DNA from: Escherichia coli
GTDB taxonomy: Bacteria; Pseudomonadota; Gammaproteobacteria; Enterobacterales; Enterobacteriaceae
Reading direction: 5' to 3' (one strand)
Length of the DNA stretch: 64,000 bases
Assembly: GCF_003334305.1 (NCBI RefSeq)
Contig: NZ_QOWS01000005.1
In this document: positions 25,139 to 30,049 of the stretch, piece by piece
Layout: every line of letters begins with the position of its first letter
Position numbering within the stretch: position 1 is the first letter of the stretch
Notes under the pieces: generated by a model
The model's input: only the letters and a program-made list of their open reading frames with translations
What the model was told of the DNA's origin: nothing
The model's database searches: none
Translations under genes and position numbers: made by a program

Positions 25139-27565
25139 TTAAACCTTTTCGATCTGGACAAGATTGCTGTGCGACGGGTTTCCCTTTGCCAGCGGTGAAG
25201 GGCGGTGAGAGGTCAGAATATTGATACTGCCGCCGTGATCGACCCGGTCACCAAACATATCCGCTTTAAGCCACGCACCTTGCCCGATGGCGGTAACGCC
25301 AGGCAGAATACGCGGAGTCACTTTTGCGGCAATCAGCATTTCTCCATTATTGTTAAATACCCGCACGGTATCGCCATGACGGATACCGCGTGCCTGAGCA
25401 TCAATGGGGTTGATCCACACCTCTTGTGGGCAGGCCTGCTGTAACACATCAATATTGCCGTAGCTGGAGTGGGTACGCGCTTTGTAATGGAAGCCCGTTA
25501 ACTGCAGTGGATAGGTTTTCCGCAGGGGATCGTCCCAGCCATCAAAACCTGGGGTATACGCAGGAAGGGGATGAATAATTTCATCTTTTTTCAATTCCCA
25601 GGTATCTGCAATCTTCGCCAGTCGTTCAGAATAAATTTCGATTTTCCCCGAAGGTGTTTTCAACGGGTTTGCCTGGGGATCTTCACGGAATGCGCGGAAA
25701 GCGACGTAGTGTTCTTCCGGGCATTTTTTCTTAAAGATCCCGGTCGTTTTCATCTCCTCGTAGTCGGGCATCTCAGGGTTACGTTCCTTCGTTTTCGCAT
25801 GGAGATATTTGATCCATTCATGCTGACTGCGACCTTCAGTAAAGGTTTGATAAACGTCTGGTCCTAAGCGTTTGGCGACTTCACTCAGCATCCAGTAGAT
25901 GGGTTTGCGTTCAAATTTTGCAGAGGTTGCGGGTTGGGCGAGGATCACATAGCCCATATTCCCTGCAGATTCATGAGAGATAAGGTCTTCTTGCTCTGTT
26001 GGCATCAGGTCGGGCAACAGGATATCGCAATACTTAGCCGAGGCCGTCATGAAGTGGTCAATGCCAACAATCATCTCGCACTTGCTGTCATCCTGAAGCA
26101 CCTCATGGGTGTGATTGATGTCGCCATGTTGATTGATCAATGTGTTACTGGCGTAGCACCATAAAAACTTGATGGGGACATCCAGTTTTTCTTTTCCACG
26201 AACACCATCACGGGTCGCGGTCATTTCCTTACCATGGTCGATGGCATCTGTCCATGTAAAGACGGAAATCTGCGTTTTAACAGGGTTCTCAAGCATCGGG
26301 AACCATTCTACCCCCAGATCCCAGCTACCTTCGCGTACACCTGAGTTGCCGCCGTTTATGCCGACGTTACCGGTGAGAACGGAAAGCATGGCAATAGCGC
26401 GGGACGTTTGCTCGCCGTTGGAATGTCGTTGTGGCCCCCAACCCTGACAAATATAAGCAGGTTTTGCTGAACCGATCTCTCGTGCCAACTGGATAATTTT
26501 TTCTGCCGGGATGCTGGTGATTTTTGCTGCCCATTCCGGCGTTTTAGCTATGCCGTCAGGCCCTTCGCCCAGAATATAGGCTTTATAATGCGCGTTACGT
26601 GGTGCGTTGGCGGGCAGAGTTTTTTCATCGTAACCAACACAATATTTGTCGAGAAATGGCTGATCGACCATGTTTTCAGTAATCAGTACCCAGGCAATCG
26701 CACAGGCCAGTGCGCCATCGGTGCCTGGGCGAATGGGCAGCCATTCATCTTCACGCCCGGCAGTTGTGTCGTTATAACGTGGATCGATGACGATCATGCG
26801 TGCGTTTGAACGTTCGCGGGCTTGCTCGACGTAGTAAGTGACACCACCGCCGCTCATCCGCGTTTCTGCCGGGTTATTTCCGAACATAACGACCAGTTTC
26901 GTATTGGCGATATCATCCGGGCTGTTGCCATCATTGGCACCGAACATATAACTCATTGCGGCACTGATCTGTGCGGTACTGTAGCTGCCATAGCGACTGA
27001 GAAAACCACCGCAAGAGTTCATCAGACGGTACGGGACGTTTGAGTTGGTGATGTTTCCGCCATCTACGCCTGTTCCGTACAGGACATGTACAGCCTCATT
27101 GCCGTAATCTTTCAGGATCCGCCGAAGATTATCACTGATGGTATCCAGGGCTTCGTCCCAACTTATCCGTTCAAATTTACCTTCACCGCGCTTGCCGACG
27201 CGCTTCATGGGATATTTCAACCTATCAGGATGATTCATCCGTCGGCGGATAGAGCGCCCGCGTAAACACGCTCGAACCTGATGATTACCGTAGACGTCGT
27301 CACCTGTCGTATCAGACTCCACCCAGTACACGGTGTCATCTTTCACATGCAAACGTAACAGACAGCGGCTCCCGCAGTTAACGGTGCAGGAACTCCAGAC
27401 CGCTTTCTCTTCTACCGGAGCCTCTGCCGCCCGGACCATTTGGGAAAATGGCAGAGTGAAAGCACTGCTTGCCAGCGCGAGACTGCCAAGTGCGGAGGTT
27501 TTCATCAGACTTCTACGGCTGATTTCAGCCTTCATGAGCGCCTCTGTGGTATGGATTTTCATCAT
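25139..27565 (-). CDS. ynfF: DmsA-type molybdopterin oxidoreductase catalytic subunit YnfF
   Basis: 808-codon ORF, twin-arginine signal SRRSLMK; paralog of ynfE. Confidence 0.9.
   Translation of the reverse strand: [808 protein letters not shown]

Positions 27566-30049: not shown

Follow-up and report, generated by a model that had tools for sequence, protein, structure and literature searches.

The tandem genes ynfE and ynfF of Escherichia coli are the subject of this analysis, which covers a stretch of 64,000 nucleotides from contig NZ_QOWS01000005.1 (hereafter the window). Our data make it almost certain that the two genes are ancient tandem paralogs, that they are the first two genes of the ynfEFGH-dmsD operon, and that both encode complete molybdoenzyme catalytic subunits exported by way of twin-arginine translocation (Tat) and serving as alternative heads. 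The locus is the published ynfEFGH-dmsD operon (ynfEFGHI), already known and present here as a natural allele. The original prediction, made from the DNA letters alone, had further described the pair as a large direct repeat at the DNA level, able to complicate assembly and to promote recombination of the unequal kind. That description is largely refuted by the results below.

The two adjacent 808-codon genes for DmsA-type subunits are found as open reading frames (ORFs) exactly where they had been described (Table 1). Both lie on the minus strand in the same orientation with 57 bp between them, a small strand correction to the earlier description. Two ATGs stand side by side at the start of ynfF, and the RefSeq annotation uses the second, which gives a protein of 807 aa and coordinates 25139-27562. 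In a BLASTP comparison, YnfE and YnfF align over 801 residues with 71% identity and 85% positives (1229 bits, E = 0). For each catalytic protein, the score exceeds the curated cutoff of the matching NCBIfam model and stays below that of the model for the other paralog. The YnfE product reaches 1795 bits on NF041885 (selenate_YnfE, cutoff 1675) and 1477 on the YnfF model (cutoff 1650), while the YnfF product reaches 1772 bits on NF041884 (selenate_YnfF, cutoff 1650) and 1481 on the YnfE model (cutoff 1675). Both specific models carry exception-level cutoffs. In addition, both proteins exceed 1285 bits on TIGR02166 (dmsA_ynfE, cutoff 778), and in the comparison with DmsA both score below the cutoff of NF011566. 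The window matches E. coli strain A7 with zero mismatches across 16,911 bp (100% identity), and the RefSeq annotation of A7 therefore transfers to it exactly. The names ynfE and ynfF are borne out by this annotation and by the NCBIfam models; the same annotation gives clcB and ynfD as the flanks of the operon.

The 4,911-bp region that spans ynfE and ynfF is 100% identical to A7 and about 99% (99.0%) identical to K-12 strains. It is detected in 5,323 of 5,426 complete E. coli genomes and is in one piece in 94.5% of the complete genomes. The claim that this is the conserved E. coli arrangement thus holds within the species; it does not carry over to the relatives, many of which have a single gene only.

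Table 1. Features of the ynfEFGH-dmsD locus, in window coordinates
Feature	Coordinates	Strand	Description and basis
FNR-like inverted repeat TTGATatggATTAA	30149..30162	minus	one mismatch to TTGAT-N4-ATCAA; pattern search
ynfE	27623..30049	minus	808 aa; ORF, NCBIfam NF041885, RefSeq annotation of identical strain A7, Pfam domains
ynfE-ynfF spacer	27566..27622	minus	57 bp; GAGT-type ribosome-binding site immediately before the ynfF ATG (sequence)
ynfF	25139..27565	minus	808-codon ORF; NCBIfam NF041884, RefSeq, 71% aa identity to ynfE
ynfG	24511..25128	minus	205 aa; predicted four-cluster iron-sulfur electron-transfer subunit; TIGR02951 264.8 bits, RefSeq
ynfH	23655..24509	minus	284 aa; predicted membrane anchor, quinol-oxidising subunit; RefSeq transferred from strain A7
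dmsD (ynfI)	22998..23612	minus	204 aa; Tat proofreading chaperone; NF008632 347 bits, RefSeq

The residues expected of a DmsA-type enzyme are in place in both proteins. All three Pfam domains, Molybdop_Fe4S4, Molybdopterin and Molydop_binding, are found in YnfE and in YnfF. The N-terminal twin-arginine signal (S-R-R-x-L-x-K) is GISRRTLVKS in YnfE, with the arginine pair at R12-R13, and has its pair at R17-R18 in YnfF; the two arginines are kept in 86 of 87 homologues. The FS0 [4Fe-4S] motif, C-x3-C-x3-C with a further cysteine downstream, is formed by C56, C60, C64 and C96 in YnfE and by C60, C64, C68 and C100 in YnfF, and these cysteines are invariant in all 87 sequences. The predicted molybdenum ligand is S196 in both proteins, within the motif G-S-Y-S-T-A-Q, and is likewise invariant (87/87). 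By a count along the printed alignment, S196 falls opposite Ser147 of the Rhodobacter dimethyl sulfoxide (DMSO) reductase 1eu1, a residue that we take, from established knowledge of that structure, to be its molybdenum ligand. The signal, the FS0 cysteines, the serine and the domains together support the predicted Tat-exported, DmsA-type character of both products, and neither the ynfE nor the ynfF of the window has a frameshift or a missing cofactor ligand. In addition, 51 alignment columns are fixed differently between the YnfE and YnfF clades, which fits two isoenzymes whose distinct functions would have been maintained.

The long identical peptide runs that had been pointed out in the two proteins are real, as one run of 26 residues, preceded by NHPDRL and one mismatch, and another of 19 residues. 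At the nucleotide level, the genes are 69.7% identical, with 78%, 84% and 47% at the first, second and third codon positions. By the Nei-Gojobori method, the proportion of synonymous differences (pS) is 0.71, which is saturated (synonymous divergence dS > 2), and the nonsynonymous divergence (dN) is 0.21. The resulting dN/dS of ~0.1 indicates that both copies are under purifying selection. DmsA is only slightly more distant from each protein than they are from one another, with amino-acid identities of 68% to YnfE and 67% to YnfF, and its distances to the two are symmetric (0.40 vs 0.42).

To place the duplication in time, we used 79 loci from bacterial contigs, one genome per species and with the subunits annotated, and a bootstrapped neighbour-joining tree of 87 A subunits over 755 columns. 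YnfE and YnfF form a clade with 100% bootstrap support, apart from all DmsA sequences of Enterobacterales, Vibrionaceae, Pasteurellaceae and Vreelandella. Within it, the members of the YnfF clade (99% support) come from E. coli, Pseudocitrobacter, Citrobacter and Serratia oryzae, and those of the core YnfE clade (98% support) from Enterobacteriaceae, Yersiniaceae and Budvicia. Orthologues in the YnfF clade thus span Enterobacteriaceae and Yersiniaceae, to which the YnfE clade adds Budviciaceae. Since each clade has orthologues across several families, the duplication is older than the diversification of those families. The two genes are adjacent, co-oriented and each other's closest paralogs, as a tandem duplication would leave them. 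The predicted old tandem duplication is therefore supported by both the saturated synonymous sites and the sister relationship of the clades.

A different origin of the adjacency deserves consideration, in which an already diverged ynfE was inserted before a dmsA-type operon that was in place beforehand, or in which two operons were joined by fusion. Arrangements of this kind do occur in relatives. In two Rahnella loci and in Serratia silvae, a YnfE-clade gene immediately precedes a DmsA-clade gene, after which come the B subunit, the anchor and dmsD, and in Budvicia ynfE-B-H adjoins dmsA-B-H-D. The n-region of the signal peptide also resembles DmsA in YnfF and differs from it in YnfE (our own comparison; PMC5203670). 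However, YnfE and YnfF are mutual closest relatives at 100% bootstrap against all DmsA, and their identity in the conserved core (72%) exceeds that of YnfE with DmsA (69%) and of YnfF with DmsA (68%). Insertion or fusion is therefore improbable, and a single in-place duplication, followed by losses and replacements, is the simplest history.

The locus is altered in several other E. coli strains. In strain MNCRE44 (NZ_CP010876.1), ynfF is a frameshifted pseudogene with two clean internal deletions of 274 bp and 580 bp, which correspond to 25221-25494 and 26269-26848 of the window and show no microhomology at their junctions. The lineage of this strain is presumably sequence type 131 (ST131). 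The two deletion junctions co-occur, in 547 and 546 of the 5,426 complete genomes (~10%). A ynfF pseudogene fixed in a large clinical lineage bears on how ynfF expression and knockout data from ST131-type strains should be read. If EC958, the strain of PMC12096835, carries these deletions, its ynfF expression data are those of a pseudogene.

The possibility that one of the copies in the window is likewise a redundant gene in decay has some circumstantial backing, namely these pseudogenes in 547 of 5,426 genomes, an apparently split ynfF in the E. albertii type strain, the many genera that keep ynfE alone and the minor part of YnfF in selenate reduction (PMC5203670). In this strain, however, both ORFs are full length, both products score above their own exception-level NCBIfam cutoffs and the cofactor ligands are intact. 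The dN/dS of ~0.1, the symmetric distances to DmsA and the clade-specific conserved residues in both proteins also speak against decay. It is already contradicted for this strain, and we consider it very unlikely.

Further variants affect ynfE or both genes. In strain 779 (NZ_CP086220.1; positions 41795-48272 of locus L085), an island of ~6.5 kb splits ynfE at a point that corresponds to 28653/28654 of the window, and its junction is present in 131 of the 5,426 complete genomes. The products of the island are a tyrosine-type integrase of 532 aa (phrog_1), an HNH-like protein of 363 aa and three hypothetical proteins. PHROGs assigns the integrase, the HNH-like protein and one family of unknown function, and PADLOC finds no defence-system match among the five island proteins. 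In strain CPE35 (NZ_CP075722.1), a 1171-bp deletion equivalent to 27382-28552 of the window joins the first ~1497 nt of ynfE to a ynfF that lacks its first ~183 nt (resuming at ynfF nt ~184). This deletion is out of register, which identifies it as an illegitimate deletion and not a homologous crossover between ynfE and ynfF. In strain MB07152 (NZ_CM129878.1), IS1B replaces the stretch from within ynfF to within ydfJ; the last 326 bp of ynfF are retained, and ynfE, ynfD, ynfC, speG, ynfB, ynfA and rspAB are lost. In the window, ydfJ is intact (rspA, rspB and ydfJ, 32944-34191 and beyond, per the A7 annotation), whereas in strain 779 ydfJ and rspA are truncated around Qin/DicB-type prophage genes. 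The window therefore represents a state of this region that is free of that prophage.

Whether the pair behaves as a large direct DNA repeat, with assembly confusion and unequal homologous recombination leading to hybrid deletion or amplification, can be judged from its identity and from its record in the population. The pairwise alignment that the original prediction had called for reveals a strong repeat at the protein level (71%) and only 69.7% identity at the DNA level. Direct-repeat detection does recover the two copies, in register and in direct orientation, at a spacing of 2484/2496 nt and with 70-76% identity. However, the longest exact run common to both genes in any register is 17 nt, and no 18-mer is shared. 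In a simulation at the observed identity, the longest run averages 19.3 +/- 3.4 nt, so that 17 nt is what chance alone would produce. The minimal segment processed by RecA-dependent recombination in E. coli is reportedly ~23-27 bp (Shen and Huang 1986), and a divergence of 30% is strongly anti-recombinogenic. A run of 17 nt is shorter than this minimal segment, than any assembler k-mer and than a read. Thus, no tract longer than ~25 bp, or of read or k-mer length, is available to make the pair a recombinogenic or assembly-confounding direct repeat.

The population data agree with this. The junction of the two genes (the 3' end of ynfE, the spacer and the 5' end of ynfF, 27266-27922) is present as a single copy in 5,290 of 5,426 complete E. 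coli genomes, and it never occurs twice on a chromosome in this set, which indicates no amplification. At most 33 of the 5,323 genomes with part of the region lack the junction, a figure that sets the ceiling for deletion hybrids. No in-register crossover between ynfE and ynfF was seen among the four variant classes inspected, the genomes without the junction (at most 33) not all being listed. The variants seen are instead the two ynfF deletions, the integrase island, the IS1 deletion and the out-of-register 1171-bp deletion described above. With 69.7% identity, a 17-nt longest run and no population footprint, the repeat proposed at the DNA level is hardly credible. Equally hard to credit is recent or ongoing gene conversion (concerted evolution), which could be suspected from the identical peptide runs of up to 26 residues and from the use of the same codon at 51% of the positions where the residues agree (codon usage by itself would give 43%), but which is countered by third-position identity of at most 0.56 in every 50-codon window and just 0.36-0.50 in the most identical peptide region (codons 76-125), by orthologues that group by type and not by species at 99-100% bootstrap, and by similar YnfE-YnfF identity in E. 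coli (70.9%) and Pseudocitrobacter (70.1%). Gene conversion was rejected on a scan of total, third-position and amino-acid identity in sliding windows of 50 codons, in which no tract of raised synonymous identity appears. Purifying selection on cofactor-binding segments, rather than DNA homogenisation, would have kept the peptide runs identical, and for this reason the pair no longer behaves as a DNA repeat. In practical terms, the pair is no assembly hazard and no recombination hotspot, and needs no special handling.

The single-operon setting that had been proposed is supported by the gene order and the spacer. The catalytic genes are followed by genes of DmsB, DmsC and DmsD type, all on the same strand, and a promoter and terminator scan found no terminator-like hairpin on the minus strand of the 57-bp spacer. 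Transcription of the operon would start from a promoter upstream of ynfE that FNR activates and NarL represses. Both effects on the operon promoter are reported in PMC6561318, which cites Xu et al. 2009. The FNR-like inverted repeat of Table 1 is located between ynfD and ynfE, ~100 bp upstream of the codon at which ynfE starts; it may be a functional operator, which would accord with the reported FNR activation. A scan for the sigma-70 consensus found no site upstream of ynfE, as is to be expected of a promoter that depends on an activator, so that the result is uninformative. In the ynfEF region, the Rfam scan of the 64-kb window gave no match. Its sole match at the gathering threshold is the Hfq-binding small RNA STnc560 at 44704-44917 on the plus strand (282 bits), which is unrelated to the ynf operon. 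Downstream of the catalytic genes, YnfG is 94% identical to DmsB, and YnfH is 58% identical to DmsC. Compared with K-12 dmsB (positions 3415-4032 of locus L005), ynfG has a dN of 0.038 and a pS of 0.73, which is synonymous saturation. Constraint is thus much stronger on the electron-transfer subunit (94%) than on the catalytic subunits (about 68%) or on the anchors (58%).

For the function of the pair we rely on knowledge of the family and on the cited literature. DmsD, which binds the signal peptides of YnfE, YnfF and DmsA (PMC5203670), would bind each pre-protein at its twin-arginine signal peptide. The pre-protein would receive molybdenum-bis(molybdopterin guanine dinucleotide), with Ser196 as the ligand, and the FS0 [4Fe-4S] cluster, bound through the four cysteines. 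The loaded subunit would be exported together with YnfG via Tat and then dock on the YnfH anchor. Electrons would pass from menaquinol through YnfH, the four YnfG clusters and FS0 to the molybdenum, where selenate or tellurate would be reduced in the periplasm. YnfE and YnfF may therefore be seen as alternative catalytic heads because both would dock via one shared YnfG-YnfH module. A periplasmic selenate and tellurate reductase role is reported for these enzymes (PMC12724226; PMC12096835), and tellurate reduction is attributed to YnfE/YnfF by Fujita 2021, as far as the reference list of PMC12096835 conveys. In Salmonella, where YnfE and YnfF are 71% identical, YnfE is the main contributor to activity (PMC5203670). 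In addition, srnA of E. cloacae complements an E. coli ynfEF deletion mutant (PMC12724226).

Several caveats apply to the view of ynfE and ynfF as ancient paralogs that encode two complete, alternative heads. YnfF is said to have a minor role in selenate reduction, to which it 'does not contribute greatly' (PMC5203670), and the ynfF pseudogene in ~10% of complete E. coli genomes casts doubt on a large contribution of YnfF in vivo. A sequence search of the PDB returned no structure of DmsA, YnfE or YnfF, the best matches being the soluble DorA/TorA enzymes, and the tree is a neighbour-joining tree rather than a model-based maximum-likelihood one. No feature of the sequence contradicts the view.

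The two genes are retained unevenly across Enterobacterales. The order E-F-G-H-dmsD is found in E. coli and Pseudocitrobacter among the 79 annotated loci, and also in Salmonella according to the literature. Only ynfE is present in Kluyvera, Kosakonia, Phytobacter, Mangrovibacter, Superficieibacter, some Enterobacter and one Citrobacter youngae strain. An operon with ynfF only is found in Citrobacter werkmanii, C. sp. Cu233 and another C. youngae strain. In Lelliottia, Cedecea and Pluralibacter, ynfE is followed directly by dmsD, with neither G nor H, and ynfE-dmsD also occurs in RIT691; in Rahnella and Serratia silvae ynfE is followed by a DmsA-clade gene. Whole modules are duplicated in Budvicia and Endozoicomonas. 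In the E. albertii type strain NBRC 107761, ynfF is apparently split into ORFs of 291 aa and 499 aa. On a 4.9-kb contig from a metagenome-assembled genome labelled 'Deferribacteraceae', a gene of the YnfF clade, with 70% identity to E. coli YnfF, precedes a B-subunit gene and dmsD. In the tree it is basal to the enterobacterial YnfF clade (99% support), and mis-binning of the contig or horizontal transfer could account for it.

The repeated loss of ynfF may plausibly be seen as niche-dependent specialisation. A fuller scenario, in which the two heads compete for one YnfG-YnfH module, ynfF has been shed repeatedly and independently, and the reciprocal loss is adaptive and dependent on niche, is speculative, and we regard it as possible but rather doubtful. 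If reciprocal loss is adaptive and not neutral, it would point to an uncharacterised specialisation of the two isoenzymes by niche.

That YnfE, YnfF and DmsA are paralogs has been in print since 2003 and this is a textbook operon, so that the pair carries little weight as a discovery. The ynfF pseudogene, the island that targets ynfE and the patchy retention of the two genes may interest those who work on S-/N-oxide and selenate/tellurate reductases. The closest known system is the ynfEFGH-dmsD operon of E. coli K-12 and Salmonella, described, as far as PMC12096835, PMC5203670 and PMC12724226 cite them, by Lubitz and Weiner 2003, Guymer et al. 2009 and Fujita et al. 2021. It has the same genes, order, strand relation and spacing as the operon in the window, with 99.0% DNA identity to K-12 and no difference of substance; the Salmonella operon has the same 71% identity between YnfE and YnfF. 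E. coli DmsABC (dmsA, b0894) shares with YnfE and YnfF the three-domain architecture, the Tat signal, the FS0 motif and the serine ligand of molybdenum, and its B subunit is 94% identical to YnfG, with the chaperone DmsD common to both systems. However, dmsA lies elsewhere on the chromosome, in an operon with a single A subunit and without dmsD, and belongs to a separate clade at 100% bootstrap. In SrnABCD and the other single-copy ynfE operons (Enterobacter, Kluyvera, Kosakonia and others), an orthologue from the YnfE clade, with 84-87% identity, serves as the A subunit. It is followed by the B subunit, the anchor and dmsD as in the window, and these operons differ in having one catalytic gene and no ynfF.

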